From Anaerorhabdus sp. (GTDB lineage Bacteria; Bacillota_I; Bacilli_A; Erysipelotrichales; Erysipelotrichaceae): DNA of 64,000 nt. The notes under the pieces are model-generated. The model did not search any database. It had not been told where the DNA came from and worked only from the letters and a program-made list of their open reading frames with translations. The stretch covers positions 744-64,743 of the forward strand of contig JBKECT010000033.1 in NCBI GenBank assembly GCA_047974855.1, given 5' to 3'. Both the position numbers and the translations under genes were made by a program. Below are positions 6,147-24,737 of the stretch, in pieces (within the stretch, counting starts at the first letter, position 1; the number at the start of each line of letters is the position of its first letter).

Positions 6147-6179
6147 TCAAAAAATTGCTCGGGGCAACTTGCCCCGAGC
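6147..6179 (-). terminator. Rho-independent terminator built on a copy of the GGGGCAA-N-TTGCCCC palindrome
   Basis: Minus strand reads GCTCGGGGC-AAGTT-GCCCCGAGC followed by AATTTTTT, downstream of CDS 6204..6410. Confidence 0.6.
6161..6175. repeat. GGGGCAACTTGCCCC palindrome (outlying copy)
   Basis: Perfect 7-1-7 palindrome. The only copy followed by a T-run. Confidence 0.9.
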
Positions 6180-6203
6180 TTTGCTAACTATTTTATTTTT
6201 TTA

Positions 6204-6410
6204 CTACACTTGCTGAATTTTTTGTATTAAATCATCATACGACAAATTTTTTTGATGCATCAATTTTTCAAATTCTTTACGCTTCGCTTCACCTATTTGC
6301 TCAATTATTTCTTTCCGAAAATCTTCCAACTCGCTAATTTTTTTTTTCAAATTCCTTATTTGCTCATTGTTTTTATCTAAACTTCTATTTAATTTTTCTA
6401 ACTTATTCAT
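6204..6410 (-). CDS. Small coiled-coil protein (68 aa)
   Basis: ORF track entry. Charged heptad-like sequence. Overlaps the end of ssb. Confidence 0.5.
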   Translation of the reverse strand: MNKLEKLNRSLDKNNEQIRNLKKKISELEDFRKEIIEQIGEAKRKEFEKLMHQKNLSYDDLIQKIQQV

Positions 6411-6753
6411 CTTCTTCTTCCTCCGAGAAAAGGTCCATCTGACCTCCAGTTACTTTATCTGTGACATTTATAAATTCTATATTATCGATAAGTACAAATG
6501 TATTTCTGAATTTTATTTTATCCTTATTGGTATATTCGTTTACTTTGAGTCTACCAAGGATTTCTACAAAATCACCTTTCCCAAGCATTTCTTGAATTAC
6601 TTCTGCAATTCTTCCCCAGGCAACACAGCGAATAAAATCTCTTGCCTTTCCTGATTTACAGATGAGACTGAACTGAACCCCTTTATTATCTTCATTTCCT
6701 ATTACTTCTATATTTGTACAAATTTTTCCTACTAAAATTGCTCTAGCTGACAT
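6403..6753 (-). CDS. ssb: Single-stranded DNA-binding protein
   Basis: OB-fold pattern AILVGKI...DFIRCVAWGRIAEVIQEMLGKGDFVEILGRLKVNEYTNKD and an acidic tail DLFSEEEEDE. Confidence 0.7.
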   Translation of the reverse strand: MSARAILVGKICTNIEVIGNEDNKGVQFSLICKSGKARDFIRCVAWGRIAEVIQEMLGKGDFVEILGRLKVNEYTNKDKIKFRNTFVLIDNIEFINVTDKVTGGQMDLFSEEEEDE

Positions 6754-8716
6754 TTATTTCTTCTCCTCTCTCAATATTTATTTTGGTTTTTTTTAAATCT
6801 TCGTTCCAATCTTTTTCAATTGGCGTATCATAAAAGAATGCCACGCATGGATATTCTTCTTGCATTTTTTCAATGACCATCTTTGTAATCTGTTCTCCAC
6901 TTCTGTCGTTGTCTAACGCTAGTACTATTTCATCTACTTCTTTTTTTCTTTCATTCATATAGTAATATATTGCTAGCTCAACATTAATCGCACTTTGGCA
7001 AGCTAAGTAGTTATACTCTCTTTCTGGATCCTTCAACGATTGATATGACATCGCATCAATCGCACTTTCAAATACCATCAAAACTTTAGAATCTCTATGG
7101 CTATCTGCTACTATACCACAGCTCATTTTAGACCCTGCAGACATCGCTTTGTAATCTCTCTTGATTCCTCGTTTAGAATAAAACAAAGCATCACCACCTG
7201 CATCACGACCAATAAAAACCACATTATTATTTATATCTTGATAAAGAAGTTTCTCATCAATATATTCTTGCACTATTTTTTTATCGATACACCTATCGTT
7301 CACTAAATAGTCTATAACATCTTTATTTGATTCTGCTTCTGCAGGTTTTTCAAGCCTCGGATTTTCTATCTGCTCTGGTAATTTTTTATTTTCAATCTTT
7401 ACTTCACTCAACCTATTTGCTACATAGTAATCTTTTGCTCTCTGAATAGCAGTCTTAACATCTACCTCTTCAAACATCATAATAAAGTCAATTATTGTTC
7501 CGCCACGTCGCTGAGAATACCGAAAAAAGTGATTGTCTTCTGGATAGATTTTACAAGAGTCGTGCCCTTCCACTTCAAATAGCTTCCCTTTTTTTACAAG
7601 TTTAACTCCTGTATTTCTTGCATAATCTACGATTTGAATCGCTTTCTTGACTACTTTCAAGTCCACCTTGTCTGCTTCTGATTTTTGAATAGATTTTCCA
7701 TCGTCTTTTAGTTTACCTGCCTTCAATAAATCAAGTTCCTGTTTTAACTCCTGGAATTCTTCCTGAGAAAGTTTGCTTGGATCGATTTGCATAGTTCTAA
7801 TTTCTTCTAAACGTTTTTCTATCTTCTCTTCTGTTGTAATTTCTTGAATGTTATTTAAATCCATTCTACCAACAATATAGTCTGATGCTTTACTAGCATA
7901 CCCTAACGCTATCCAAAACAGTTCTTTATTCTCTTGCAATCTCTGTGCCCAAGACTGACAATATGCTGTATGATTTTCAATCATTTCACTATTCACTAAA
8001 CCAAATTCTATACCTAATAAAACACTGGTGAACTCTGCTACTAACTCTTCTTCAGCATAATTGTTTATCTTTTGAACACGTTTCTCAACCATCGCCGAAT
8101 GTCCAATTTCATGTAAAAGTGTAGAATTATAATTTGCTTCATCAATAAAATCCCCAGCGGGTGGCATTGTAATCCTATCCAGTTCTGGATAGTATGCAGC
8201 TGCATCAGAAAGCACAACTTCAATCTCTTCAGTCTTTAAATAATTTTCAATTGCAGCTTTGGTATAATGATCTGTAATGTTCATCACTTCTAAATCTAGT
8301 TCTTCAATCTCTTCAATTTGTGATGCGTTAAAAACCGTGAAAAAGTTCATTGTCGCTTTGATATGTTCTTTCTCTTCACGAGTCATGATCTGAAATTCTT
8401 CTTTTGATACAGGTTTTTTCAACATCGTATCATATAGACTATATTTAACTAGTCGTAACCCTGATGCACCTTTTTTTACACGTAAGCCTTTCTTCTTTGC
8501 TTGCTCAAAAGTCATCCATCGTGGATCATTATAACCTCTCGCAATCGAATACAATTCAAGTAACAATTGATTTCTTCCTCTATAATTATTACCAGTCGTA
8601 TAATTGTAGTGTTTGTAATTTGTAGTCCATGTTTTTTTCCATGGGATCCTTTTATTATCCAAAGACTCGATAATCTCTCCCAAAATCTGTTCCTTAATTT
8701 TATCTTTAAAGTTCAT
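6743..8716 (-). CDS. ArdC-like ssDNA-binding domain, zincin metalloprotease and Toprim/primase-like fusion protein
   Basis: N-terminus IPWKKTW...NYRGRNQLLL...DPRWMTFEQAKKKG is ArdC-N-like. HEIGH is a zincin motif. The C-terminus has VFESAIDAMSY and LALDNDRSGEQ, which are Toprim-like. Confidence 0.7.
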   Translation of the reverse strand: MNFKDKIKEQILGEIIESLDNKRIPWKKTWTTNYKHYNYTTGNNYRGRNQLLLELYSIARGYNDPRWMTFEQAKKKGLRVKKGASGLRLVKYSLYDTMLKKPVSKEEFQIMTREEKEHIKATMNFFTVFNASQIEEIEELDLEVMNITDHYTKAAIENYLKTEEIEVVLSDAAAYYPELDRITMPPAGDFIDEANYNSTLLHEIGHSAMVEKRVQKINNYAEEELVAEFTSVLLGIEFGLVNSEMIENHTAYCQSWAQRLQENKELFWIALGYASKASDYIVGRMDLNNIQEITTEEKIEKRLEEIRTMQIDPSKLSQEEFQELKQELDLLKAGKLKDDGKSIQKSEADKVDLKVVKKAIQIVDYARNTGVKLVKKGKLFEVEGHDSCKIYPEDNHFFRYSQRRGGTIIDFIMMFEEVDVKTAIQRAKDYYVANRLSEVKIENKKLPEQIENPRLEKPAEAESNKDVIDYLVNDRCIDKKIVQEYIDEKLLYQDINNNVVFIGRDAGGDALFYSKRGIKRDYKAMSAGSKMSCGIVADSHRDSKVLMVFESAIDAMSYQSLKDPEREYNYLACQSAINVELAIYYYMNERKKEVDEIVLALDNDRSGEQITKMVIEKMQEEYPCVAFFYDTPIEKDWNEDLKKTKINIERGEEINVS

Positions 8717-8785
8717 AATACCCTCCTTTTTTACATTTCAATTCCATAACTTCTATACTTTCTCGTATTTTAAAATATCAAAAAT

Positions 8786-9802: not shown

Positions 9803-9846
9803 CTTTAGTTACTCACCAACTTCCACTTTATTTAATCGTTCACGTT

Positions 9847-10536
9847 CTATATCAGGGATTGGTTCAATAAAAAAGTCTCAAGGACTTCTCCATTGAAACT
9901 CTTTGATATGACATCATGTTTCTCTACGTTCTCCAAAAGTTGATTGTATTTTTCATTTGCTTCTACCTCATCTTCAAATAAATAAAAAGTGGTATCCCAA
10001 AGAATATCATATTCTTTATTCGTGTCATTCCACTCACTGCCTTCAGAAACTATCACTTTATATTTATTATACTCCATAGCCTTAGCTTCAAGTAATTTAA
10101 AGTCGCAACATTTTTTTATAAAAAATTGATTTTTTTCTATAACTACTTTGTTATATACCATATTAGCTGTTGACTTAAGTTTTTCAAAGTTATTGTTACA
10201 ATAGTTAAATTCTTCCTGTAATAATCTTCTGTACTTTAAATCAGTTTCATTTGAGATATCTTTAATCCACGCTTTACCATCTGGAATCGGAAACATAAAA
10301 GAAAATCTAACACTAGAAATAGCTTCTCCATTATTGTTTTCTATCAACTCATTAGTTACTTGTTTTCTATTAAATGATGAAATAGGTGCATAAAATTTCA
10401 TATTATTAATTTCAAAAACAATACCAATTAAGAATTTATTATTTGATAAATATTCTATATTTGGAACCTTACTATCATATTTTTTTAGTTCTTTAACGTA
10501 GTCCAAATCTACATTATAAAACTTTAAGTTGTACAT
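9847..10536 (-). CDS. Type III toxin-antitoxin toxin, ToxN/AbiQ family endoribonuclease, with an extra ~60-aa C-terminal extension
   Basis: LKFYNVDLDYVKELKKYDSKVPN...FLIGIVFEINNMKFYAPISS...FMFPIP...CDFKLLE tracks my recollection of the ToxN/AbiQ sequence. Preceded by a terminator and tandem RNA repeats. Confidence 0.85.
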   Translation of the reverse strand: MYNLKFYNVDLDYVKELKKYDSKVPNIEYLSNNKFLIGIVFEINNMKFYAPISSFNRKQVTNELIENNNGEAISSVRFSFMFPIPDGKAWIKDISNETDLKYRRLLQEEFNYCNNNFEKLKSTANMVYNKVVIEKNQFFIKKCCDFKLLEAKAMEYNKYKVIVSEGSEWNDTNKEYDILWDTTFYLFEDEVEANEKYNQLLENVEKHDVISKSFNGEVLETFLLNQSLI

Positions 10537-10561
10537 AAACTCCCTCCTCTCACAAACAATA

Positions 10562-10590
10562 GAAAAAAAGCACGAATATTCGTGCTTTCT
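10562..10590 (-). terminator. Terminator between the antitoxin repeats and the toxin gene
   Basis: Minus strand reads GCACGAA-TA-TTCGTGC followed by TTTTTTT. Confidence 0.7.
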
Positions 10591-10592
10591 TA

Positions 10593-10676
10593 ATTACAAG
10601 TCGCTCTTTACAGTGGCGAAACACTATCGAATTACCAGTCGCTCATTACAGTGGCGAAACACTATCGAATTACAAC
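10593..10676 (-). ncRNA. ToxI/AntiQ-like antitoxin RNA: 2.2 tandem 38-nt repeats
   Basis: Units at 10593-10630 and 10631-10668 differ at 2 positions by my alignment. A partial third unit is at 10669-10676. Directly upstream (minus strand) of the terminator and toxin gene. Confidence 0.8.
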
Positions 10677-10767
10677 TATAGTATACCATAAAAACGTTGT
10701 AAATCAATAGAAAATATTATTTTTTTATATTTTTTTCCTCCCCCTTAAATCTTTTTGAAAGTTCCGT

Positions 10768-12516
10768 TTATTGATTTCTAATTGGATCCATTTCATAAAG
10801 TTCTTTAGGTGTTGCATACACAGAAATTACCATCTTTTGATTACCTGCAAAAAACAGCCCATCACCCTGCAATATTCTCCTATTGTTTGTATCCAGCAAA
10901 TGCCTTTCCCAATCATTCAATGAAATAAGTTCCGCTAATGAATCAACCGCATGTTTAGATACCCCCATAATTAATTTATACGCTGAGTTATTCATAATCG
11001 CAGTTCCATAGGCTTTCATTTCAACACCGTTTATCAACACCGATGAATTTAGATCTGATGGATCCTGAGAAGCGTAAACAAAAAGATTGTTATATTTTCT
11101 AGACCGCCGTGCATAAGTAGACATTTCTCGTGCTGACTCTCCTTCTAAGATGTATTCCTGCCCTTCATCCATCACCAATGCAGTATCACCTTCTCCAGAG
11201 CAAATTGCCCAAGAATATTTGAACATGATAAAGTTTAAAGCGTTTCTCAACCCCAGATCTTTGTTCTTCAATGATTTCGTTCCAAAACCTAAAAAATTCG
11301 TGTTATTTTTTACGGTTGTGTGTCCATTGAAAAAATGACCATTGCTGACGATCAGAGGTTTAATGTAACTGTTTAATTTAGTTAAAAGTTCTTTACGATA
11401 GTTAGTCTTTTCAATTTCTATTTCCTTGATTAATACATCTCTAAAATCTTCAAGTATTGGATAGTCCTGATTCGTTAGATTTCTAAAATCAGTCGTCGCT
11501 GATATACCCTTCAATGCATAAGTCTTCATTACAAGCTCGTCGATCTCGTTGACTGCTTCAGCAACCTTGTCAACGATATTCCCGTGATAGAGCATCAATA
11601 CCGTCTTAAAGTCATCGATTACGTTAGATATAGATATCGTTGTATTCCAACGAACATCATCAAACTGATCATCTTCATCTGTCGTGATAGGTTTTAAATC
11701 AAAGATATTAATTTGATTGTTGGGTGTACCCCAATTTACAAACTCTCCGCCATACCGCTTAAGCAGATGTACATTCTTATTCTCTGGATCAATCCAAATC
11801 GTTTTTATTTTTTTCTTAATGAAATGCCTAATGAATTTCATCAATGCTGTAGACTTCCCTGACCCCTGAGCTCCAAAAACAACGATATTTCCATTAAGGC
11901 GATTTTGATTTTGACTTTCTCTTCTTTGGTGATTATAGAAAAACGGGTCAATCATTATAATTCCATTGTTGTTTTTTTCGAATCCTAATAGAAATCCATC
12001 TTTATCCATCAGTTTAAGAAAATGATACGGCCACATCGTTGCAAACGCTGTAGTCGTCATAGGGACTCCCAAATTCCAAATCAAATCTTCATGAACTCCA
12101 TGCTTAACAAAAAGCGGTGAATTCAATTTAAAAAGTTCTTCTTGCATCATTGCTAAATCCTTAATTTTGAAGTTCATCTGTGAAAAATCATTTTTCAACT
12201 TCCTACAAGAATCATTTAATTCTTCATAAGTATCTTTGGTGATTGTAATCGTCATAAAAACATCTAATATTCGATCATTACTAGCTACTAATAATTCAAC
12301 ATACTCTTTAAAGTTTTCTAGATCTTTTCTAAGTCTAGCCGCTAAGGTTGGATCGGTCGTTTTATCAAGCTCTTGAGACTTGCGGTGCACTTCCTTTTTC
12401 AACGGTTTAGATAAGTCATAATTTAACTGAGTAGTCTTTACTCTAATTTTCATCGATTTATCTTGCAGACAACTGCTCAGAAACCCAAAGTTAATTCTTT
12501 CAGGGAACTGTGTCAC
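10768..12516 (-). CDS. virB4: VirB4-type conjugation ATPase, C-terminal part (gene appears split or interrupted)
   Basis: Walker A in VVFGAQGSGKSTALMKF. The track start is a GTG. The same frame stays open upstream to an in-frame TAA (12559-12561), with an ATG at 12615. Confidence 0.8.
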   Translation of the reverse strand: MTQFPERINFGFLSSCLQDKSMKIRVKTTQLNYDLSKPLKKEVHRKSQELDKTTDPTLAARLRKDLENFKEYVELLVASNDRILDVFMTITITKDTYEELNDSCRKLKNDFSQMNFKIKDLAMMQEELFKLNSPLFVKHGVHEDLIWNLGVPMTTTAFATMWPYHFLKLMDKDGFLLGFEKNNNGIIMIDPFFYNHQRRESQNQNRLNGNIVVFGAQGSGKSTALMKFIRHFIKKKIKTIWIDPENKNVHLLKRYGGEFVNWGTPNNQINIFDLKPITTDEDDQFDDVRWNTTISISNVIDDFKTVLMLYHGNIVDKVAEAVNEIDELVMKTYALKGISATTDFRNLTNQDYPILEDFRDVLIKEIEIEKTNYRKELLTKLNSYIKPLIVSNGHFFNGHTTVKNNTNFLGFGTKSLKNKDLGLRNALNFIMFKYSWAICSGEGDTALVMDEGQEYILEGESAREMSTYARRSRKYNNLFVYASQDPSDLNSSVLINGVEMKAYGTAIMNNSAYKLIMGVSKHAVDSLAELISLNDWERHLLDTNNRRILQGDGLFFAGNQKMVISVYATPKELYEMDPIRNQ

Positions 12517-12601
12517 TATAAATGTTCTTACGAATTTATCCGCAAGAATTAAATCTTTTTATCTGATCTTAAGTGATGTTGGTGCTGCTAATATTTTATC
12601 T

Positions 12602-13547: not shown

Positions 13548-13548
13548 A

Positions 13549-14941: not shown

Positions 14942-15208
14942 CTATAAACCAAATGCTTTAATGATTTGCGGAGCAAGTACAATGATCAAACCAACAATCA
15001 ATATCTTACCCACTCTTTTAATCCATTCTTTCCAACTTCTTTCATCTTCTTCTGTAGTAGCGATGTACTTATAACTTTGCCAAGCAATTACTACCGCAAG
15101 CACAATCGCTAGACTCATGGTCATTAAATTGTACATACTTTCTAAATACGGTGACAGCAAATTAAAGATTGCTGTCTCATCAATTCCACCTTCTCTTAAT
15201 ATTCTCAT
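14942..15208 (-). CDS. Small two-TM membrane protein
   Basis: 88 aa. Preceded by the conserved 47-nt leader. Confidence 0.55.
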   Translation of the reverse strand: MRILREGGIDETAIFNLLSPYLESMYNLMTMSLAIVLAVVIAWQSYKYIATTEEDERSWKEWIKRVGKILIVGLIIVLAPQIIKAFGL

Positions 15209-15256
15209 TTTTTCTCCTCCTGCAGACTTGCTGCTTCCTTTGGGGCAACTTGCCCC
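15209..15256 (-). promoter_or_regulatory. Conserved leader, class A, copy 1
   Basis: Minus strand reads GGGGCAAGTTGCCCCAAAGGAAGCAGCAAGTCTGCAGGAGGAGAAAA, then ATG. Confidence 0.8.
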
Positions 15257-15259
15257 AGA

Positions 15260-15755: not shown

Positions 15756-15757
15756 AA

Positions 15758-15805
15758 TTTTTCTCCTCCTGCAGACTTGCTGCTTCCTTTGGGGCAACTT
15801 GCCCC
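15758..15805 (-). promoter_or_regulatory. Conserved leader, class A, copy 2
   Basis: Same 44-nt core as copy 1, ending at the ATG at 15755. Confidence 0.8.
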
Positions 15806-15926
15806 AATAAAAAAAAAGCTACGGTTCTATTCCGTAACTTAACGCTATAATACAAAAAAGAGGAAACCCTCTTTTTTAAGTCTTTATTTAATAACGTGAC
15901 CTACGTTGTGTCAATAGCATTTATCT

Positions 15927-18326
15927 TCATTCACCCCTCATAACAGGGATTTTAATAATCTGGTTAATACGATAATTATTGAATATTTCAATCCCATAAT
16001 CTGCTTCTGGTATGACAATACTACAACCATCGCCTTCGATAAAATACCCCCCTGGTGCTCTTGTTTCGCAAATACGATACTCGTGACCATATATAAGATC
16101 AGGACTATAGATAGTCCCTTGAGACACATATGTTTCGTAACTCTCAAATGTTGGATCTAAAACCAACTCTCCGCTTTCTTCTTCTGTAGAAACTCTTTCA
16201 ACAATATATTTCCCATCAGGTAAATATTTGATAAGTTCACCGCTCTCTCCTAACGTGTATAGATAGCTTACTTCAACTTCATCCTCTGTATCAAGTGATA
16301 CTCTATATTGTTCTCCAAGTTCTCCTTGAAGTATTAATGCACCAGTGATGTACTCACCAATAAATTCAGTTGTTGGTTCTTCCCAACTCTCTAATTCATC
16401 TTCAGTAAGTTCACCCCTCATCCGCTCAACTTCATAGTCTTTATAAATTTTTTCAATGGTAAAGGCCGCCCCTGAAAGTAAGATCGTTTGCGATTCATTT
16501 TGCTTGTACAACTTCAAAGCTAATCGTCTTCTTTTGTTTGAAAGAGTATCTGTAGAAAAACTAACCCCCTCACCTAGATCCATCGATACCACCTTACAAG
16601 CCTCTTCAGGAAGATCATAACCATCTGGTGCATTTACCTCACAGACTTCATACGTTCTGCCGTGTTTTAGTGGCATATTAGCCCATCCTACGAGCTCTTC
16701 TTCACTTAATAAGGTGAAAGTTCCAATTGGACTTTTTAGGCTGCTAGCGTCGTCTAAAACACGGTAAAAATAGCTTTGGCTTTCTCCTTCTGGGGCAACT
16801 TGCCCCAAAGCAGAAAGATCTAGCTCATTGAGAATTACTAATCCATTTTCATCAGTTTCTATTTCCATCACTTCTTCAAAATTCTCGTTTATCGAGATTT
16901 CTATTTTCCCTTGATAAGCCTGGCTATTATCAACTAAATCATACACTCTTATATATTGATTTCCTGTTATAACATCGAACTCATAGATATCTCCATCGAT
17001 ATCCATCAACGGAATAGTTTCTTCTTCGTCTTCCCAAAGCAAATTTCCATCTTCATCAACTGCTTGAACTTCTTCAGCTTCTGTTATATCAGTGACGCTA
17101 AATACAGCACCATCTAATAAGATTTCATTCCATTCTTCATCTATCTTAAAGTACTGAAGATCTACTTGCTGCAGATTATTCATAATAGAAATTTCTGTTG
17201 TTTCATTTAGTGCTATCTCAACTTCATAGATCCCTGGATTAATTACGTAGCCGTTCACCGTTTCAACTTCTCTTACATAGTAAGTCCCTGCAGGTAAAGT
17301 ATCCTCAATTAATATCTCTCCATCTTCATCAGTACTATATGTTCCAATAACATCATTAAATTCTTCATCGAATGCTACTTCAAATTGATGCCCTGATCCT
17401 GCCGCTAATCCATACTCATCTACTTTAATAATCTCTAGATTTCCTGTAGACATTTTAATATTTAAAGCATAAGAACTCCGTGGGTCTGAATAACCAATTG
17501 AAGCTACCGTTTGTGCTCCAGGAAGTGTCCAGACCACCCCAATCCAACTTGGGTCATTTGTACCAGGAGAAGAAATATCAATTTTTCCATTCTTATCAAA
17601 ATTCAAATCTTCAATGATCACAGTCAAATCATTTCCATTTTTTGAACAACTAACACCATTTGGGCACCCAACGTTATATTTATTCAAAACACCATTCGTA
17701 TCGGTAATCGTTTTCCCAACTTGAAATTCCAATTCTAAAGTTTGGTTGTGAAAACTTGGTGGTGTACCAAAACTATTGATATTTGCCTCTATTTGATTAA
17801 TCTGACTATCCACATTTACATTTGGAGTAATCCAATATCCTAATTCTCTCCAAATTAAGATTTGAGAAGCAATATAGTAATCGTCACTTCCATATTGTTG
17901 ATATCCAAAACGAACCACTTTCCATATTCGCCACTGTGTTTCCCAACCTAAATAATTCCAATCATTTGATTGATTATATTCCATACCAAGCCCAGCTGCT
18001 ACAGTAGGGTCTAAACAAAAAACAACTTGACCATCTATAGACATCATTGACAACCAATGTACTCCATTGTCATATTCAGCAAGTTTCTTCACTCTTACAA
18101 GTTGCGATCTAGTCTTATCACTTACTTCACCATTATAATAAGCTTGAAATTCTTCAACACTCATTAACTCTTGTGGTTCACTCCAGTAATCAAAATAATC
18201 TTCATTCTCTTCAATTAATTGACTCCCTTCTTCATTTTCTATTTCTTCAGCAATTACTGTTGAAATCATTGATAAAACCATACAAAAAGCCAGTAGAATT
18301 CTACTAGCACTTATTTTTTTATTCAT
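15927..18326 (-). CDS. Secreted surface adhesin with a thioester-domain-like N-terminal region and repeated SpaA/Cna-B-like domains
   Basis: Signal peptide present. VVFCLDP plus ASQILIWRE resembles the thioester Cys and TQxxIW motifs. Repeats of the type V(N/A)(G/P)(Y/D)GY... are present. No LPXTG-type sorting signal at the C-terminus. Confidence 0.65.
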   Translation of the reverse strand: MNKKISASRILLAFCMVLSMISTVIAEEIENEEGSQLIEENEDYFDYWSEPQELMSVEEFQAYYNGEVSDKTRSQLVRVKKLAEYDNGVHWLSMMSIDGQVVFCLDPTVAAGLGMEYNQSNDWNYLGWETQWRIWKVVRFGYQQYGSDDYYIASQILIWRELGYWITPNVNVDSQINQIEANINSFGTPPSFHNQTLELEFQVGKTITDTNGVLNKYNVGCPNGVSCSKNGNDLTVIIEDLNFDKNGKIDISSPGTNDPSWIGVVWTLPGAQTVASIGYSDPRSSYALNIKMSTGNLEIIKVDEYGLAAGSGHQFEVAFDEEFNDVIGTYSTDEDGEILIEDTLPAGTYYVREVETVNGYVINPGIYEVEIALNETTEISIMNNLQQVDLQYFKIDEEWNEILLDGAVFSVTDITEAEEVQAVDEDGNLLWEDEEETIPLMDIDGDIYEFDVITGNQYIRVYDLVDNSQAYQGKIEISINENFEEVMEIETDENGLVILNELDLSALGQVAPEGESQSYFYRVLDDASSLKSPIGTFTLLSEEELVGWANMPLKHGRTYEVCEVNAPDGYDLPEEACKVVSMDLGEGVSFSTDTLSNKRRRLALKLYKQNESQTILLSGAAFTIEKIYKDYEVERMRGELTEDELESWEEPTTEFIGEYITGALILQGELGEQYRVSLDTEDEVEVSYLYTLGESGELIKYLPDGKYIVERVSTEEESGELVLDPTFESYETYVSQGTIYSPDLIYGHEYRICETRAPGGYFIEGDGCSIVIPEADYGIEIFNNYRINQIIKIPVMRGE

Positions 18327-18341
18327 TTAATTTTCCTCTTT

Positions 18342-19211
18342 TCATTCATAGTGTAATATTAAATCATGACCTCCTGGTAGTCCCATATTATTGCTGATTC
18401 CAGAACAACTATATCCAACAGCGTGATTTGAATTTAATAATTCATTACCTTTATTTGTGCAAATATCTCCACTTCCTTCTCCTAAAAAACGCTCATACAC
18501 TTCATTACCTTTAGGTCTTATAATAGCATCACATGGTAAGTTCTTGTCATAAACAGCGTTCGGACAAGCATAAGCAGTTTCACTTCCTGAAGATCCACCT
18601 TCTGGGGCAACTTGCCACGAAGAGCCTGAGTTATTAGACCCTGTGCTTCCACTTCCTGAATTTCCAACATTTGGATTGGCGACCGTTACAAACGTAAAGT
18701 CATAAAACGCCTCATATCCATTCTCATCCACTACATAATACTGAAGTGGATATCTTCCAACTTTCTTACTATTCCAATCACCTAAAACTTCTACTTCTAA
18801 TTCATTTCCTAAATAATCAGTTGCGGTAATTTTTTCAAAGCTATAACTCGTTCCTGCAATTACTGTAAACTCTTGCGCAGCACCATTTATTGTAGGATTC
18901 ATATTAACTACATTAACTTTTACTAATCTTTCAATCTTGTCATCTTCATAAGTAACAGTCCATATCGCATCGATAGTTCCTTCTACACTTGTATCAATAT
19001 CTGGATAATGCAACTCTCCATTAAACGATCCTATAATACTGTGCGGATCGAAATCTTGTCCTAGTGCTATCGTTATCTCCTCAGATACCAATTCGAGCTC
19101 TAAATTAAATTCTACAACAACTGGTGTAGGTGTTTGTTCAGTCTCAGTTGTACCTGATGAGCAACCTACAAGTACTAACACCATAAAACTTACTGTAAAT
19201 TTTTTCAACAT
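18342..19211 (-). CDS. Lipoprotein with Ig-like domains, a Ser/Gly linker and a Cys-rich C-terminal domain
   Basis: Lipobox LVGCSS. Paralogous to CDS 21892..22791. Confidence 0.7.
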   Translation of the reverse strand: MLKKFTVSFMVLVLVGCSSGTTETEQTPTPVVVEFNLELELVSEEITIALGQDFDPHSIIGSFNGELHYPDIDTSVEGTIDAIWTVTYEDDKIERLVKVNVVNMNPTINGAAQEFTVIAGTSYSFEKITATDYLGNELEVEVLGDWNSKKVGRYPLQYYVVDENGYEAFYDFTFVTVANPNVGNSGSGSTGSNNSGSSWQVAPEGGSSGSETAYACPNAVYDKNLPCDAIIRPKGNEVYERFLGEGSGDICTNKGNELLNSNHAVGYSCSGISNNMGLPGGHDLILHYE

Positions 19212-19253
19212 AATTTTCTCCTTTCCACCCTTGGGGCAAATTGCCCCAACTTC

Positions 19254-19415
19254 TTATTCTGCCTCATCCATTAACTTCTTTAGTTCTTTCTCAATCAATT
19301 TTAAACCATCTTCTGAATCTTCCTCAAGAATTTTTTCAAGTTGAGGTAATAGTAGAAAATCTTCATCCATTCCATAAACTTCTAGCAATTCTTTTGCCTT
19401 ATCTCTTAAACTCAT
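19254..19415 (-). CDS. Small acidic protein (53 aa), below the ORF-track size cutoff
   Basis: My translation: MSLRDKAKELLEVYGMDEDFLLLPQLEKILEEDSEDGLKLIEKELKKLMDEAE. A class B leader and AAAGGAG RBS lie upstream. Confidence 0.45.
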   Translation of the reverse strand: MSLRDKAKELLEVYGMDEDFLLLPQLEKILEEDSEDGLKLIEKELKKLMDEAE

Positions 19416-19474
19416 AGCTCTATTCTCCTTTCTACCCTTGGGGCAAATTGCCCCAAATTAATATTTTGTATCCT

Positions 19475-19963
19475 CTAATTCATCTGTCCAACTTTATTCT
19501 TTAGTTCTTCATTTTCTTTCTTGAGATCAGAAATTGTCTTGCTTTGATTTTGTATTTCTGATTCCAAGTTATTAATCGCACCCAAAACCTGATCTAATTC
19601 AGATGGTTGCTGTTGTAATTCTTGAACACCATCATTCACATTTTCATCGAACTCGGATAATGAATTTTCTTCATTAGCATACTCATTCACTCCAAATAGA
19701 TTTTCTACCCATCCTTTTATGAAACCAAGAAAAAGAAATGCTCCGCCAGAGACAGCCGTAAACATCGCTAAACCTTTCAAATAGCTAAGAAATGTCTCCC
19801 AATCGAAAGATCCCCAATTCAAAATCCAATCCGCTGCAAATGTCAAAATAAAATAACAAGCTCCTAAAGCAAATATTCCTCCACCAAAGTAAGTAAATAA
19901 ATAGAGAAGCCCTAACCCAATCGATATGATACCATTTAGAACTATATAAAGAAATCTCTTCAT
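19475..19963 (-). CDS. Membrane protein with a C-terminal coiled coil
   Basis: Start moved to MKRFLYIV with an AAGGAGG RBS. The longer track ORF reads through the palindrome leader. Confidence 0.6.
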   Translation of the reverse strand: MKRFLYIVLNGIISIGLGLLYLFTYFGGGIFALGACYFILTFAADWILNWGSFDWETFLSYLKGLAMFTAVSGGAFLFLGFIKGWVENLFGVNEYANEENSLSEFDENVNDGVQELQQQPSELDQVLGAINNLESEIQNQSKTISDLKKENEELKNKVGQMN

Positions 19964-20055
19964 TCTTCCTCCTTCGCGGGGCAAGTTGCCCCAGCTCTTA
20001 TTAATATTATACATTATACCTTATTTCGGATAAAATATATGTCAAAAATAATTAA

Positions 20056-20334
20056 CTACTTCTCCAATACAAGATTTTTTTCCAAACCGTCCTTCCATGA
20101 AAAATTTAATTTTTCATTTTGTTGCAATCCACTTACTATTCCTCTAACTGCCTTCACACCATCTCCTATCTCATTTTTCTTTAATATGAACTCATAATGA
20201 TCTTGGGTATCAATATTTTTTATATAGATTTCCACTTCTTTCACATTATCTAAAAAATTATCGAATACATGCATAGCACTAATCCGACAATTATCTGGCA
20301 TATTCTTTTCTAATCTTTCTTTAAATTTATTCAT
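20056..20334 (-). CDS. Hypothetical protein (92 aa)
   Basis: ORF track entry. Preceded by class A leader copy 3. Confidence 0.55.
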   Translation of the reverse strand: MNKFKERLEKNMPDNCRISAMHVFDNFLDNVKEVEIYIKNIDTQDHYEFILKKNEIGDGVKAVRGIVSGLQQNEKLNFSWKDGLEKNLVLEK

Positions 20335-20382
20335 TTTTTCTCCTCCTGCAGACTTGCTGCTTCCTTTGGGGCAAATTGCCCC
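20335..20382 (-). promoter_or_regulatory. Conserved leader, class A, copy 3
   Basis: Same core sequence. The central N of the palindrome is T on the minus strand. Confidence 0.8.
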
Positions 20383-20385
20383 AAA

Positions 20386-21090
20386 CTATTTTTTCTTTGC
20401 TATAACGATAAATCTTGAATTTTCTTCTGCTACATCACAAGTAACTAATGTAACTAATTTTGATGTATCATCAACATCAGCAGCACCATATTGAATAAAT
20501 GCTCTATCTAAAAATTCATTGATCATCTGTTCCATTTCTCCTGATCTAAACTCTTGTTGATAATAACCAAGCCATAAATTATTTTCCTGCGTTAAATCGA
20601 CTTCTGCAATTCCTATCATTTGATATTCTACTTCACCATCTTCACTGATGATCCTAAATGTTGAGTCACTATCTTCAACTAACTCAGCAATGAAAGAAAA
20701 CATATTGTCATTCTTCGATGAAGCATGACCTTGAATAATCACATTACTAGATAATAGATTGCTTGTTTCGTCAACAAACGGCGTGCCCATCGAATCATAA
20801 TCACCATAGATATCTGTCCTAAAATATGCTTCATTATTTCCTGGATTCATAATCGGCAACTGAAGATCCTTATAAGCGAATATTGCAACAATATCCTCAT
20901 TGATCCTTTGGTATTCTTCTAGGGTTTCAATAATTTCTTCATTTATCTCTGGGGCAACTTGCCCCGAATTATAAAGTATATTTGCTCCATCTAATCCATC
21001 TGGATGCATACTGTAAGTAACGATAACCGTTACTATAACAGTTAGAAAAATAATAACTATAAATATACCTATCACAATTTTTTTCAACAT
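20386..21090 (-). CDS. srtB: Sortase (class B-like)
   Basis: N-terminal TM segment, VIIQGHAS (His), LVTLVTCD (TLxTC Cys) and RFIVIAKK (Arg). Confidence 0.8.
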   Translation of the reverse strand: MLKKIVIGIFIVIIFLTVIVTVIVTYSMHPDGLDGANILYNSGQVAPEINEEIIETLEEYQRINEDIVAIFAYKDLQLPIMNPGNNEAYFRTDIYGDYDSMGTPFVDETSNLLSSNVIIQGHASSKNDNMFSFIAELVEDSDSTFRIISEDGEVEYQMIGIAEVDLTQENNLWLGYYQQEFRSGEMEQMINEFLDRAFIQYGAADVDDTSKLVTLVTCDVAEENSRFIVIAKKK

Positions 21091-21138
21091 AACTTACTCC
21101 TTTCCACTCTTTGGGGCAAGTTGCCCCAAAGAAAAAGA

Positions 21139-21657
21139 TTATAGTTCTTCACTATAATCTAGCTCAATCATTAAATCATTATAAATCTTCTGAACATCAT
21201 TGAATATAAGCCTGCTATATCCATTAAAAACAAGCTTTTGTACTTCCTTTGCATTTTTTATGATATCTTTTTCATCAATTTTAGATACCCTGACTTCTAT
21301 CTCTACATCCTTCTCCATATAAATACAATCAATATATCTACTTGTAATTGGAAACATATTTTGAATAAGAAAAGCTCTTTTCTGTCCTAGTACTTCACTA
21401 AATCGAATTGTATTACATTTAGGATTTTTATTCCCCTTTTGTTTTTGTCTTAAAATTTTATGCTGAACAATACTCTCATACTTTTCAACTCGTGAAGAAA
21501 TTGGAACACACCAATATATATCTGAATTATTTTTATCTTGAAAAGCATAAAAACAAGGTCTCTTATTTCCATTACCTTTATTTTTCATTAGACTTCCATC
21601 CAAATCATATTTTATAAAGAACTCTTCCCTAATAAAGAAGAAAACGCCTTTATCCAT
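21139..21657 (-). CDS. Second type III TA toxin candidate (ToxN-superfamily, CptN-like)
   Basis: RPCFYAF...IYWCVPISSR echoes the FYAPISS motif of the first toxin. Architecture is repeats, hairpin with T-run, RBS, gene. Confidence 0.6.
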   Translation of the reverse strand: MDKGVFFFIREEFFIKYDLDGSLMKNKGNGNKRPCFYAFQDKNNSDIYWCVPISSRVEKYESIVQHKILRQKQKGNKNPKCNTIRFSEVLGQKRAFLIQNMFPITSRYIDCIYMEKDVEIEVRVSKIDEKDIIKNAKEVQKLVFNGYSRLIFNDVQKIYNDLMIELDYSEEL

Positions 21658-21677
21658 TTGTAATTATCCTCCCTTAT

Positions 21678-21715
21678 AAAAAAGTAGGAGCCCCGTGTTT
21701 ACCAAAGTTCCTACT
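21678..21715 (-). terminator. Weak hairpin plus T-run between the repeats and the toxin gene
   Basis: Minus strand reads AGTAGGA-N19-TCCTACT followed by TTTTT, then the GGGAGG RBS. Confidence 0.35.
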
Positions 21716-21718
21716 AAT

Positions 21719-21825
21719 CATTTGTACCCGATTATTTATTTTAACTCCGCTATCGGGAAGCGGAGATACATTTGTACCCGATTATTTATTTTAGCTCCGC
21801 TATCGGGAAGCGGAGATACATTTGA
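21719..21825 (-). ncRNA. Candidate type III antitoxin RNA: 2.1 tandem 50-nt repeats
   Basis: Units at 21719-21768 and 21769-21818 differ at 1 position. Each carries the hairpin CTCCGC-N9-GCGGAG. A partial third unit follows. Confidence 0.65.
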
Positions 21826-21891
21826 GGGACTATTCCCTTACCAAAAGTATATGTGTATGCCAACGATTTGTCAATAAAATTCATATGCAAA

Positions 21892-22791
21892 TTATTCTAC
21901 AACTTCAACAACACAGCTTGCTGACTGTCCATCGTCTGTATAGTAATTAACCGTATATCTACCTGGAACTGACAAATTCACTGCAGAATAGTCTACACTT
22001 ATCGCAGCACTTGCATTCACACCACTAGAGAGTTTAAAAGAAAGATCTCCTAGCGAACTATTTACTTTAATCGTTATATTTTTTACGCCACTTAGAAATG
22101 GACTGTTATTCTCTGGGACAACTTGCCCCGAGGATCCCGAGCTGTTAGACCCTGTACTCCCACTTCCTGAAGAACCACTCTCTGGGGCAACTTGCCCCGA
22201 AGAGTTTGAGTTATTATTTGTTGCTGGTGTAGTGACAATTACCTCAACAATCTCTTTCTCTTTCTCAACAACTTTGATTGTAGTGCTTTTTTCAAGCTTA
22301 TTTCCTGATGTGTCAAATACTTGAATAAAGATGCTATAATTTCCAACTTCTTCTAAATTTACATCACCTAAGATCTTTATTTCGACTTCAGAAAAATTAT
22401 CTTCAGCAGCTATTTCGTTAACTAAATTAAAATACAAATTTCCAACTTCTACTTTATACTCGCTTTTGATATCAGCATTTGGTGCTGTTGTATCCGTGAT
22501 TTCAACTTCTGTATAGATCTTCTTTCCATTAACACTGTATTCAACTTCAAATACACCTAGAGCACTATATTCAGCATCTGAGCAAATTATTTTTACATCA
22601 TCTAGAAGAATGTTTCTATTTTCGATTTGAGTTTCTTCAATACTAATCCCATTCACCGATTCAATAAAACCACATGCATCAATAAATGTATTAATCTCAA
22701 CAACTTCTTTGAATACAACATCTACTGACGATTTTTGGCATCCTGTCAAAATAAATAAAGATACTATTAAACTCGCTATAAATTTTTTCAT
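21892..22791 (-). CDS. Lipoprotein with Ig-like domains and a Ser/Gly linker
   Basis: Lipobox LTGCQK. The linker carries two palindrome copies. Confidence 0.7.
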   Translation of the reverse strand: MKKFIASLIVSLFILTGCQKSSVDVVFKEVVEINTFIDACGFIESVNGISIEETQIENRNILLDDVKIICSDAEYSALGVFEVEYSVNGKKIYTEVEITDTTAPNADIKSEYKVEVGNLYFNLVNEIAAEDNFSEVEIKILGDVNLEEVGNYSIFIQVFDTSGNKLEKSTTIKVVEKEKEIVEVIVTTPATNNNSNSSGQVAPESGSSGSGSTGSNSSGSSGQVVPENNSPFLSGVKNITIKVNSSLGDLSFKLSSGVNASAAISVDYSAVNLSVPGRYTVNYYTDDGQSASCVVEVVE

Positions 22792-22795
22792 TTAA

Positions 22796-23533
22796 TCACC
22801 CATTTCCACTGTTTGGGGCAAGTTGCCCCAAGCGGTCAATAATATCATCAATATCTTCTTCTATTAATGTGTAATCTGCAATCTCAACATCTTCCGTTGA
22901 GATTAAAAACTTTTTGAATGCCTTTATTTTCTTTGAAAAAGTGTCTGCCGGCGATACTTTTGTTTTTTCTGGGGCAACTTGCCCAGAAGTACTTTTATTC
23001 TCTTCCGCCAGAATATTTTTCGTTGTTCCATCACTAATACCTGTCAAAGCACAAATCCACTCTCGCTGTCTGCCAGGCGGCTTTTCGCCACGTTCTACAA
23101 GTTCTTGATATAACTGACTAGCTTCTTTAACGATTTCAAGTCTTTGCTCTGTTGTGAATTGTCTGTATGAATTACTTCTCATAAGAGAAATTTTATCTAA
23201 AATTATATCTCCTGACAGAGCAATTTTGATCGATGGAACTTCACCATCTAGATGCCTGCCTAGAAAATAAACTTCTTTCCCCAGACTAAATAGTTGCCGT
23301 AAAGCAGCAACTCTTCGGTGACCTGTATGAATTAATACTTGCCCATCTTCTTCAGTAATCAAAATCGGTTGCATCAAACCACCCTCAGCAATGCTCTCCG
23401 CAAGTTCATCTATATCAGTTATTTCATAGATATTTTTTTCGTTGGATTTCAAATCTTCTATACTTATGTATTTAATTTTTGCACTTGTATTTTTAAATGA
23501 CTCATTATTGAGCATATCATTCAATATATTCAT
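22796..23533 (-). CDS. ParB/Srx-domain protein (ParB-like partition or regulatory protein)
   Basis: PILITEEDGQVLIHTGHRRVAAL is the ParB N-terminal GxxR box. Start overlaps the parA stop (TAATG). Confidence 0.7.
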   Translation of the reverse strand: MNILNDMLNNESFKNTSAKIKYISIEDLKSNEKNIYEITDIDELAESIAEGGLMQPILITEEDGQVLIHTGHRRVAALRQLFSLGKEVYFLGRHLDGEVPSIKIALSGDIILDKISLMRSNSYRQFTTEQRLEIVKEASQLYQELVERGEKPPGRQREWICALTGISDGTTKNILAEENKSTSGQVAPEKTKVSPADTFSKKIKAFKKFLISTEDVEIADYTLIEEDIDDIIDRLGQLAPNSGNG

Positions 23534-24333
23534 TATACACTAACCTCCTTTCTACCCCTGGGGCAATTTACCCCAAACATCTCTTCTACTAACAATCGAT
23601 AATCTTCTCCTACATTTGCTTTGATATTATTTATAACTGGTAGTTGTGTATATCCTGCTTCTGTAATTGGTTTAGATTGATTTCTTATTTGAGTATTTAG
23701 TAATTTCCCTGGGGCAATTTGCCCCAAGTCCTCAATAAGAGCTTTATCCAAGTTGTTTCTATTTTTCATCGTCACTAAGATCTGGTAATCAACATCCATA
23801 TCATACTTCTCGTTCATATCTTCAATAAAGCTAATTGTAGTAACAAATCCATCTGTTGCTCCTTTATCTATTTTAATTGGAATAAGTATATTCCCTTGCC
23901 TATTCTTACAAGCGTATATTGCATTTGTTGTCATGATACCTAGTGAAGGATTGCAATCCACAATAATAAGATCATACTTTTCTTTCACTTCCTGGATAAT
24001 CTTTAACAGGCGGTTGTGTTGGGCTTTTCTAACATCAATCAATATCGATGTTTCAATCACAAACAAATCTAATCTACTCGGTAATAAATCAAATCCATGA
24101 GGTGTTTTTATAATTGCCTCTTTTGTCATTGTAGGATCGATTAAACAATCTACCACTGTCATTTCATCTTTAGAATATGAATGATCCATCAACATTGCAG
24201 TAGAATTTGCTTGTCCATCCAAATCCACCAACAATACCCTCTTTCCTTTTTTAGCTGCACCAGCAGCTAGATTTATGCTCGTTGTTGTTTTTCCAACACC
24301 GCCCTTAATATTCAATACGCTAATTACTTTCAT
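23533..24333 (-). CDS. parA: ParA/Soj-family ATPase
   Basis: MKVISVLNIKGGVGKTTT is the deviant Walker A. Start moved from 24432 to 24333, with a GGAGGAG RBS in the leader. Confidence 0.85.
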   Translation of the reverse strand: MKVISVLNIKGGVGKTTTSINLAAGAAKKGKRVLLVDLDGQANSTAMLMDHSYSKDEMTVVDCLIDPTMTKEAIIKTPHGFDLLPSRLDLFVIETSILIDVRKAQHNRLLKIIQEVKEKYDLIIVDCNPSLGIMTTNAIYACKNRQGNILIPIKIDKGATDGFVTTISFIEDMNEKYDMDVDYQILVTMKNRNNLDKALIEDLGQIAPGKLLNTQIRNQSKPITEAGYTQLPVINNIKANVGEDYRLLVEEMFGVNCPRGRKEVSV

Positions 24334-24380
24334 TTTTCTCCTCCTGCAGACTTGCTGCTTCCTTTGGGGCAAATTGCCCC
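24334..24380 (-). promoter_or_regulatory. Conserved leader, class A, copy 4
   Basis: Same 44-nt core immediately upstream of the parA ATG. Confidence 0.8.
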
Positions 24381-24383
24381 AAA

Positions 24384-24444
24384 ACTGCATTATGCAGTAT
24401 TCAAAGCAGAAAAATTCTGCTCTCAATACCACATAATGTGGTAT
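24384..24444. promoter_or_regulatory. Three consecutive short palindromes upstream of the parA leader
   Basis: ACTGCAT-T-ATGCAGT at 24384-24398, AGCAGAA-AAA-TTCTGCT at 24405-24421, and ATACCACA-TAA-TGTGGTAT at 24426-24444. Confidence 0.45.
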
Positions 24445-24737
24445 TATCTCATCAACTGCATGCCTGCCATAGGTTTAACCTCTCCCCTTTTCTTTCGTGT
24501 AGGAAGCTCAACGTATTGAAGTCTCATTATCACAAAGAACATCATCGCAAATACAGTTCGCATCTATACCTTGTTAGCCATGCTTTATCGCAAGCGAGCA
24601 ATCTAACTGGGCTCTTTTCTTTGTGTTTCGTAATTGATAAGTTATTTAATTTTCAAAGATCATAAAATTCTATATAGCTAACATGCTTTCGCATGGAAAG
24701 CCCATAAGGGTATCTTTGGGGCAAGTTGCCCCAGAAT

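Follow-up and report, generated by a model that had tools for sequence, protein, structure and literature searches.

A palindrome array anchored at the parAB genes of an Anaerorhabdus integrative and conjugative element as the probable target of a ParB-like protein

Background

Why does a mobile element carry nineteen copies of one short palindrome that the chromosome beside it lacks? The question is raised by a window of 64,000 nucleotides (nt) from a metagenome-assembled genome (MAG) of Anaerorhabdus sp. (assembly GCA_047974855.1, contig JBKECT010000033.1), in which an integrative and conjugative element (ICE) occupies the part from <1 to ~34.5 kb. The palindrome is dispersed around the genes for a ParA-type ATPase and a ParB-like protein of this ICE. 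An earlier interpretation of the same DNA (the sequence-only reading) had offered three roles for it: an array of operators or centromere sites that serves the ParB-like/ParA pair, intercistronic RNA hairpins, or hairpins in the transferred single strand that serve the Toprim-domain protein. Cytidine triphosphate (CTP) switches of the ParB family are known to do more than segregate DNA, as in KorB, BisD, VirB and Noc.

We find that the sites are under strong purifying selection, restricted to the element, anchored at parAB and co-varying with the recognition helix of the ParB-like protein. From these sequence comparisons we consider it likely that the ParB-family protein encoded by the ICE has the palindrome TTGGGGCAA-N-TTGCCCCAA as its cognate site in double-stranded DNA. 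The first of the three roles gains support from the helix covariation and from the adjacency of the sites to parB across unrelated cargo, and the other two are not supported as primary roles.

Results and Discussion

A near-perfect palindrome confined to the element

A search of the window with up to one mismatch recovered 19 copies of GGGGCAANTTGCCCC, 15 of them perfect and four with a single mismatch, in agreement with the sequence-only reading copy for copy and coordinate for coordinate. Eighteen copies lie within 15242-24732 and one at 6161 (Table 1); none occurs between 25 and 64 kb, nor in the 29 kb of chromosomal DNA that the window includes. All copies thus fall inside the ICE, and the motif had correctly been described as element-restricted. 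Its chance expectation is 0, with zero matches in all 100 dinucleotide-preserving shuffles, which bears out the earlier claim that the motif is selected and is not an effect of composition; the local G+C content is 31-37%, not the ~30% given before. When three mismatches were allowed, only two weak additional matches appeared (at 11197 and 14285, with 0.52 expected), and apart from three isolated half-sites the half-sites of the window sit in full palindromes. A site is thus either close to perfect or missing altogether, a pattern that marks purifying selection rather than recent decay.

On the gene strand the extended consensus reads TT-GGGGCAA-N-TTGCCCC-AA, and among the 118 distinct sites of the family position -8 is T in 88% and position +8 is A in 86%. 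Eight of the 19 window sites fall in the 2.6 kb around parAB. Eleven copies have a start codon preceded by a Shine-Dalgarno (SD) sequence 14-35 nt downstream on the gene strand (open reading frames, ORFs, of at least 40 codons), nine of them lying wholly in spacers and the other two (22815 and 23560) overlapping the last codons of parB and parA. The copy at 24718 is in the parA leader with no start codon nearby, and the remaining seven lie deep within ORFs, where all are read as G-Q-[VIL]-A-P. Half of the 18 clustered sites are located entirely in non-coding DNA, which makes up ~13% of that stretch. The position of many sites just upstream of ribosome-binding sites arises mainly because a packed operon offers no free DNA other than its short intercistronic spacers; where a spacer is missing, the site would be written into tolerant protein linkers (GQ[VIL]AP here, LGANCP in relatives).

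The same placement could be taken to mean that the palindromes act mainly as RNA, namely as intercistronic 5' hairpins (UUGGGGCA-ANU-UGCCCCAA, ~-12 kcal/mol) for processing, exonuclease protection, translation or the tuning of termination. The stem is stable, and 11 of the 19 window sites, as well as most sites in relatives, are 12-54 nt upstream of an SD-preceded start. The copy at 6161 is a clean terminator, and ~8% of the sites carry a T-run; moreover, position +9 is G in 52% and position -9 is T in 91%, which gives a U-G pair in the sense RNA only. However, elements with 25-40% protein identity agree in the sequence itself and not only in the pairing, compensatory drift is absent within each class, and the one-mismatch copies include changes that break the pairing. 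The distance to the start codon is not fixed across the window and its relatives, some sites follow stop codons and precede ORF-free stretches of 450-550 nt (L121), and seven sites of the window lie well inside ORFs. The array is also regional, since the 44-85-nt spacers of the type IV secretion system (T4SS) core on the same strand have no site, and hairpins acting as RNA would not predict half-sites that change together with a helix of the ParB-like protein. SD sequences and Glu codons account for the purine-rich 3' flank, and the scarcity of T-runs, together with the variable start spacing, argues against a primary role in RNA, to which we assign a low probability. As had been noted earlier, only the 6161 copy is followed by a T-run, and it is the sole intrinsic terminator on the gene strand among the 19. 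An Rfam scan of the window at the gathering threshold gave no match. A CsrA-type or other translational operator was rejected, as the distance from site to SD sequence varies and the two do not overlap in any fixed way.

The same palindrome in distant relatives

When viral contigs were scanned with the bare 15-mer, the matches listed were all single chance matches, and for this reason the 19-mer was used to scan 185,579 species genomes (one per species). The genome scan returned 44 loci, mostly in Solobacterium, Erysipelotrichaceae and Lachnospiraceae MAGs and many with multiple copies. Many of these loci encode homologous relaxase, VirB4-like, VirB6-like, ArdC-primase, ParA and ParB-like proteins at 23-40% identity, and the palindrome is unchanged across them even though similarity at the DNA level exists in one locus only. 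The overall protein identity of distantly related palindrome-bearing elements is 25-60%.

The two closest relatives, L165 and L208, have sites at matching positions, so the motif is not missing from close homologues of the element. L165, whose ParB is 62% identical, has nine sites, several of which are orthologous (parA leader, parA, parA/parB junction, parB, lipoprotein linker and adhesin), and L208 has six sites over the equivalent stretch from parA to the sortase gene. A metagenome scan seeded with an alignment of the ParB-like protein yielded 39 loci. Every metagenomic locus with a ParB at least 34% identical to that of the window has one to nine sites, with the exception of the 2.2-kb contig L168; these sites are all downstream of the parB match, with none in up to 10 kb upstream, and in Solobacterium-type loci the first site is ~25 nt past the parB stop codon. 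Where a relative has sites, the one closest to the par genes is in parA/parB or a short way past the parB stop codon. No site was found in the 7 kb chromosomal flank of L165 or in the chromosomal flanks of L172-L174, L188 and others. A host-wide repeat at similar density across the chromosome, which would have made the palindrome a generic host feature, is thus not what the flanks examined contain. The intragenic sites are read as GQxAP in low-G+C elements and, in another reading frame, as LGANCPK in L149, L157 and L164 (46-48% G+C). This implies that the DNA is conserved and not the peptide.

Within the window several sites are part of longer repeated units. Four near-identical copies of ~50 nt, each consisting of palindrome, leader and SD sequence, are found at 15191-15262, 15740-15811, 20317-20388 and 24315-24386 (cassette type 1), and a second type has five copies (19197-19247 and four others). 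Both types precede unrelated genes, which points to gene conversion or cassette copying within the element. Such copying is what would be expected of a functionless selfish mini-palindrome, similar to a repetitive extragenic palindrome (REP) or a miniature inverted-repeat element, that has recently spread in the ICE. On the other hand, orthologous sites are kept in elements whose DNA is only ~70% identical, the palindrome is unchanged in much more remote elements, the chromosomal flanks are free of them, intragenic copies are in frame, degenerate relics are absent, and no RAYT-like transposase was recognised among the ~40 window ORFs scanned. We find a selfish origin of this kind scarcely credible. 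The in-frame insertion of a mobile 18-bp unit, as in the Rickettsia palindromic elements, was also rejected: the site in ParA replaces residues, it is orthologously conserved, and relatives use another frame. An integron attC-like role was dismissed as well, given that the sites are too short and partly intragenic and that the sole recombinase found is a serine recombinase at the end of the element.

Half-sites change with the recognition helix

In ~8 further lineages of the ParB-like protein, a different palindrome is present in the equivalent place, within parB or no more than ~50 nt past its stop codon. At least five site types can be distinguished, each with its own helix sequence, a relationship that is correlative. 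The helices ISDGT[TV]K and YSDGSVK go with GGGGCAAnTTGCCCC, as in L208 (ISDGTVK, six GGGGCAA sites) and L215 (YSDGSVK, two GGGGCAA sites adjoining Tad-pilus genes), and FADGSVK goes with GGGGCAAAATGCCCC, of which L209 has two copies. VTDRT[VI]Q is paired with GTGGAAAn(n)TTTCCAC, and ISQRTV, ISERVIQ and FSARSIQ with GTGGCAAn(n)TTGCCAC; here L210 (ISERVIQ) has GTGGCAAnTTGCCAC three times and L216 (FSARSIQ) has GTGGCAAGATTGCCAC three times. FTNNYVK is associated with GGGTTGAaTCAACCC, with the half-site GGGTTGA, and occurs in L211 together with GGGTTGAATCAACCC, while YSERAVQ is associated with CGGGTAATTACCCG, present twice in L214. More distant homologues have a 7-1-7 palindrome (AAC)GTGGAAAnTTTCCAC(GTT) in L195, L196, L199, L200 and L201, a 7-2-7 version of it in L194, and (AAC)GTGGCAAnTTGCCAC(GTT) in L202 and L203. 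By class, the helix-turn-helix (HTH) reads TGISDGTVKN, MGVTDRTVQN or MGISQRTV.N.

The sites stay beside parB even where the neighbouring cargo is wholly different, as in L203 and L215. In L203, an island that carries a tyrosine integrase and a type I restriction-modification (R-M) system and has no T4SS in view, the palindromes adjoin parB; it is thus parAB that they accompany, and not the conjugation machinery, the primase or the relaxase. This bears on the proposal that the hairpins function in the transferred single strand, either as priming sites for the ArdC-CHC2-Toprim protein, as the sequence-only reading had suggested, or as single-strand promoters after conjugative entry. The element does encode a primase-like fusion (6743-8716) and an SSB, and the palindrome can form a hairpin on either strand. 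However, L203 and L215 retain palindromes beside parB without T4SS, relaxase or primase in the available flanks, the sites cluster at parAB and not at the relaxase/oriT end, and the tracking of the ParB helix by the half-sites is left unexplained, so that a single-strand role appears very improbable.

A different question is whether the sites could be operators of another co-inherited DNA-binding protein of the element, either the conserved protein of ~345 amino acids (aa) or an unrecognised small regulator. The ~345-aa protein is encoded directly upstream of parA in the window and in L165, L208, L210, L215 and L188, and covariation cannot separate tightly linked genes. Against this, the ~345-aa family was not detected in class B and C loci, L214 or L216, and in L216, which has a RepA_N protein instead, palindromes still adjoin parB. 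In the ParB-like protein, the HTH is the block with the highest conservation, and its differences coincide with those between the half-sites. Replication initiators, moreover, usually bind iterons, which counts against the ~345-aa protein as the binder. We regard a binder other than the ParB-like protein as improbable.

Some of the relatives have further features around their palindromes. In the distant ParB-like classes two palindromes bracket a non-coding region of ~240-290 nt (L195 10742-10993, L199 4596-4861, L203 10704-10959, and also L200 and L201) in which a conserved inverted repeat, GGAAATGTTTACA...TGTAAACATTTCC, is accompanied by recurring TGTTTAC/GTATAC motifs and by a hairpin that resembles a terminator. 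It is followed by a gene starting M..K....SFRF, ribbon-helix-helix-like by eye and with no Pfam match in L203. This region may be a promoter/operator region, a small RNA or an oriT. Defence genes are part of the cargo in two islands, with a TOTE-system AEP/helicase/PLD protein and the type I R-M system in L203 (1460-4414 and 13507-18902) and Thoeris ThsA/ThsB in L217 (12273-13915).

The ParB-like protein

In a sequence-profile search, the GHRR motif of the ParB-like protein (residues 71-74) was aligned to the GERR of Helicobacter pylori ParB and of Noc, and the profiles matched the N-terminal domains of ParB and Noc in the PDB; TIGR00180 and TIGR04285 gave sub-threshold matches. G71 and R74 are invariant across 30 family members, and the HTH is the most conserved block of the family. 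We built an AlphaFold (AF2) model on an alignment of 30 sequences, which reached a mean confidence (pLDDT) of 80.9, with residues 21-180 mostly above 85, and discarded a model built on three sequences (pLDDT 53.6). The top Foldseek matches of the model (7bnk, 7nfu, 6sdk, 6t1f and 8qa8; probability 1.0, 157-172 aligned columns) are structures of ParB, Noc and KorB (8qa8/8qa9), and they span the N-terminal and DNA-binding domains. KorB was absent from the sequence-profile matches against the PDB, and the similarity to it is at the level of the fold only. The model contains an N-terminal domain, the HTH and two C-terminal helices, with no match to an extra domain. The ParA-ParB pair is retained in all related loci. 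A protein annotated on a 72.1-kb contig of an Anaerorhabdus sp. MAG is 100% identical to the ParB-like protein of the window.

The family is large, as an exhaustive HMMER search retrieved 418 clusters (50% identity) at E<1e-10. A megablast search of PLSDB with the 15-25 kb stretch gave no match, and tblastn of the ParB-like protein against plasmids gave only Lactococcus and Clostridium matches at 27-29% identity, which are uninformative. Our literature search for the palindrome strings found no paper, and a search on ParB, ICEs and Gram-positives found nothing that describes this ParB-like family.

A proposed mode of action

We propose that a dimer of the ParB-like protein would recognise both 7-bp half-sites through its HTH, the proposed target carrying TTGGGGCAAGTTGCCCCAA. 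By analogy with ParB, Noc, KorB and BisD, the dimer would then load as a nucleotide-dependent clamp, and it could occupy ~10 kb, beginning at the parA leader and reaching as far as the pilin gene. In combination with ParA and the ~345-aa (Rep-like) protein, it would form a maintenance or partition module of the excised element, and, in the manner of KorB, the array probably also modulates the co-directional operon for conjugation and surface proteins. For this system, binding to the DNA, dependence on a nucleotide, spreading and the relative weight of partition and regulation are what we infer. Promoter-like hexamer pairs end 3-16 nt upstream at 6 of 41 sites against a background of 2.9%, in a weak consensus scan that is sensitive to composition, and promoter-like matches overall are fewer than in shuffles; these elements are a weak hint of operator positions.

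Several observations weigh against this assignment. The match to Pfam PF02195 (ParB_N; 1.1e-5, 25.8 bits) is just under the cut-off of 26.3, and in the profile search the HTH has no detectable sequence homology to the HTHs of solved ParB-family structures. The consensus N-terminal ParA-binding motif is (L/F/I)G(K/R)G(L/F/I) (PMC12704722), and the N-terminus of the ParB-like protein, MNILNDMLNNESFKNTSAKIKY, when read from the sequence, does not contain it; Box III has also diverged. The missing motif and the diverged box make CTP-dependence uncertain. The covariation is phylogenetically confounded: the loci were gathered by their homology to ParB, and the same covariation would be seen for a DNA-binding protein of any kind that is inherited along with it. 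In three members the helix is class-A-like but the DNA at hand contains no GGGGCAA site; these are L166 (3.8 kb), L168 (2.2 kb) and L217, the last of which has 21 kb of sequence, a 350-aa protein, the helix DGTVG and one symmetric variant, GGTGCAAnTTGCACC, 6 kb downstream of parB; L217 may represent either another specificity class or a genuine exception. The promoter enrichment may merely reflect AT-rich gene ends. Lastly, the T/G bias at -9/+9, which would produce a U-G pair in mRNA, and the 10 of 118 distinct family sites that double as terminators leave room for an added role at the RNA level besides that of a DNA site. In L217 the variant is located at 17152-17168 and reads CGGTGCAACTTGCACCG.

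A more far-reaching version of the proposal, which we find rather doubtful, is that the array is more than a centromere and controls an entire operon in ICEs of Gram-positives. In the operon for surface proteins and mating-pair formation, almost all intercistronic junctions, and some positions inside ORFs, would serve as loading points for a minimal ParB-like clamp. The clamp would silence or gate the ~10-kb unit by roadblock or by KorB-like promoter occlusion at internal promoters, the palindromes would also provide the cistrons with a 5' RNA hairpin, and the helix/half-site classes (DG with GGGG, xR with GTGG) would be an incompatibility code that makes co-resident elements orthogonal.

Comparison with known systems

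KorB is both a centromere-binding protein and a global repressor, acting through a CTP-dependent sliding clamp on odd-length palindromic OB sites (PMC11790492). Similar to KorB/OB of the IncP-1 plasmid RK2, where the partner is IncC/ParA, the ICE has a ParB-family gene beside a ParA homologue on a conjugative element, and dispersed odd-length palindromes (6-1-6 in OB, 7-1-7 here), some near promoters, which in the ICE are putative, and others far from them or intragenic. RK2 has 12 OB sites in ~60 kb. The array described here, with 18 sites in 9.5 kb, is far denser; its sites are in one co-directional operon and mostly in intercistronic spacers, and the setting is a Gram-positive ICE and not a Gram-negative plasmid. 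We found no sequence-level similarity to the KorB DNA-binding domain, and no partner of the KorA/TrbA type was recognised among the window ORFs scanned.

BisD of the Pseudomonas element ICEclc binds bisS, GAGCTATCCCCnGGGGATAGCTC, within ICE genes, spreads in a CTP-dependent manner and controls transfer genes (PMC12409273). Both systems combine an ICE-encoded ParB-like protein with an odd-length palindrome inside ICE genes (11-n-11 in bisS). BisD, however, is an activator with two bisS sites, an extra activator domain and the partner BisC, whereas the protein here is a minimal one of 245 aa with an adjacent ParA, up to 18 sites and no match to a C-terminal activator domain.

With ParABS and Noc/NBS the ICE shares the ParA-ParB pair, the ParB N-terminal (CTPase) fold with GxxR, the HTH and palindromes around the par genes that are often intragenic, and ParB and Noc are the best structural matches of the model. 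In contrast, GGGGCAANTTGCCCC has no resemblance to the canonical parS TGTTNCACGTGAAACA and is a site of 15-19 bp with a central unpaired base, the protein is without the consensus ParA-binding N-terminal motif, and the array is much denser than typical chromosomal sets of parS.

Short G+C-rich palindromes in operon spacers are also reminiscent of REP/BIME sequences and of terminators, and the 6161 copy is one of the latter. Unlike REP/BIME, the sites are element-restricted, partly intragenic, invariant in sequence and co-varying with a DNA-binding helix, and unlike terminators, ~92% of them have no T-run, with only 1 of 19 window sites and 10 of 118 family sites qualifying. Relative to KorB, BisD, ParABS and Noc, what differs is the site sequence, the absence of a known partner or activator domain, the Gram-positive ICE setting and the density and placement at nearly every intercistronic junction; the ParB fold, the ParA partner and odd-length palindromes that may be intragenic are shared.

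If the proposal is confirmed, the 418 clusters would represent an uncharacterised and widespread ParB-like clade from mobile elements of gut, oral and rumen Firmicutes, and they would provide a natural series of recognition-helix/half-site pairs for the study of how ParB specificity evolves and what keeps co-resident elements orthogonal. It would also be a case of extreme selection at the DNA level, with a site of 15-19 bp in almost every intercistronic spacer as well as in protein linkers. The palindrome is a sharp sequence marker with which these ICEs can be found and delimited in metagenomes.

The element and its genes

The element is identified as an ICE, and the 35-64 kb part of the window as chromosome, by a large serine recombinase (33157-34452) that is followed by sugar-metabolism and cell-wall genes. 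All genes of the first 29 kb are on the minus strand. Their order on that strand begins with the ~345-aa protein, ParA, the ParB-like protein, an Ig-like lipoprotein and a CptIN type III toxin module, continues with a sortase and small genes, a second lipoprotein, a SpaA/thioester adhesin and a pilin-like protein, and ends with VirB6-like, VirB4-like, ToxN, an M23 peptidase, the ArdC-primase fusion, SSB, the 6161 site with its T-run, a MobL relaxase and a coupling protein.

Table 1. Palindrome sites and associated features of the window, in gene-strand order
Feature	Position	Strand	Remarks
Conserved ~345-aa protein	24738..25778	-	family unrecognised; directly upstream of parA
Site GGGGCAAGTTGCCCC	24718..24732	.	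5 nt past stop of ~345-aa gene, upstream edge of parA leader; orthologous site L165:8592
parA leader	24381..24717	-	flanked by two sites; blocks nearly identical to L165 (8607-8952)
Site	24366..24380	.	32 nt upstream of parA ATG; in ~50-nt cassette of site, leader and SD
ParA-type Walker ATPase	23533..24333	-	266 aa from MKVISVLN; PF13614, 6.7e-42
Intragenic site in parA	23711..23725	.	read LGQIAPG; orthologous sites L165:9821, L208:5166
One-mismatch site	23560..23574	.	last codons of parA, 26 nt upstream of parB ATG
ParB-like protein, 245 aa	22796..23533	-	N-terminal ParB/CTPase-fold domain with GHRR; predicted HTH (helices 156-164, 168-182, REWICALTGISDGTTKNILAE); proposed palindrome binder
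One-mismatch intragenic site in parB	22971..22985	.	SGQVAPE, directly past HTH; orthologous sites L165:10552, L208:5885
Site	22815..22829	.	last codons of parB, 23 nt upstream of lipoprotein ATG; promoter-like hexamer pair ends 9 nt upstream
Intragenic site	22184..22198	.	Ser/Gly linker of Ig-like lipoprotein, SGQVAPE
One-mismatch intragenic site	22115..22129	.	Ser/Gly linker of Ig-like lipoprotein 21892-22791, SGQVVPE
Intergenic site	21113..21127	.	22 nt upstream of sortase ATG; 10/12 promoter-like element ends 10 nt upstream
Intragenic site	20951..20965	.	sortase gene, SGQVAPE
Intergenic site	20368..20382	.	33 nt upstream of ATG of 92-aa gene; cassette type 1
Intergenic site	19978..19992	.	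14 nt upstream of ATG of 162-aa membrane/coiled-coil gene
Intergenic site	19440..19454	.	24 nt upstream of ATG of 53-aa ORF; cassette type 2
Intergenic site	19233..19247	.	21 nt upstream of ATG of 289-aa lipoprotein; cassette type 2
One-mismatch intragenic site	18604..18618	.	linker of 289-aa lipoprotein, SWQVAPE
Intragenic site	16792..16806	.	SpaA/thioester adhesin, LGQVAPE; orthologous site L165:16210
Intergenic site	15791..15805	.	past terminator following adhesin gene, 35 nt upstream of small ORF; cassette type 1
Intergenic site	15242..15256	.	33 nt upstream of pilin-like (TrbC/VirB2) gene; cassette type 1
Outlying site	6161..6175	.	inside longer stem (GCTC...GAGC) with T-run, intrinsic terminator; end of T4SS block, upstream of relaxase operon

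The ~345-aa protein has no Pfam or NCBIfam match. In L216 its slot is filled by a RepA_N protein, which suggests an unrecognised family of replication initiators, and the ~345-aa protein would then have a function in replication or maintenance. The blocks of the parA leader are near-identical between the window and L165 even though the coding DNA is only ~70% identical, and both leaders have a sub-threshold match to the pemK-RNA-like motif (25.5 and 24.5 bits, gathering score 34.8; 24467-24530 in the window). Possible identities of the leader are a regulatory RNA, a promoter region and an origin.

Two paralogous Ig-like lipoproteins (18342-19211 and 21892-22791, minus strand) have a common Ser/Gly-rich linker, GSGSTGSN(N)SGSS(G/W)QVAPE, whose coding DNA contains three of the intragenic palindromes. 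Two type III toxin-antitoxin modules are present on the minus strand. One is of the ToxIN type (9847-10768), with a ToxN toxin (PF13958, 8e-35) that is preceded by a 38-nt tandem repeat of 2.2 copies (10592-10675), a promoter-like element (10703-10675) and a terminator (10591-10564). The other (21139-21892) has a CptIN-family toxin (NF047359, 3.8e-47; no Pfam match) preceded by a 50-nt tandem repeat of 2.1 copies (21719-21824) and a sigma-70-like promoter matching at 11 of 12 positions (21874-21846). The gap upstream of the CptIN toxin is the sole palindrome-free spacer longer than 200 nt in the 15-25 kb stretch, and the module is therefore probably an inserted cargo unit.

The 657-aa fusion protein (6743-8716, minus strand) combines an ArdC N-terminal single-stranded-DNA-binding domain, a zincin peptidase, a CHC2 zinc finger, DUF3991 and Toprim, that is, anti-restriction and primase functions, and a short SSB gene (6403-6753, minus strand) adjoins it. 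Upstream of the VirB4-like ATPase, a 221-aa ORF (12602-13267, minus strand) has a weak match to a VirB4 family of Mycoplasma ICEs (NF045975, 2.5e-5), a sequence match that hints at a T4SS akin to those of ICEs in Mollicutes.

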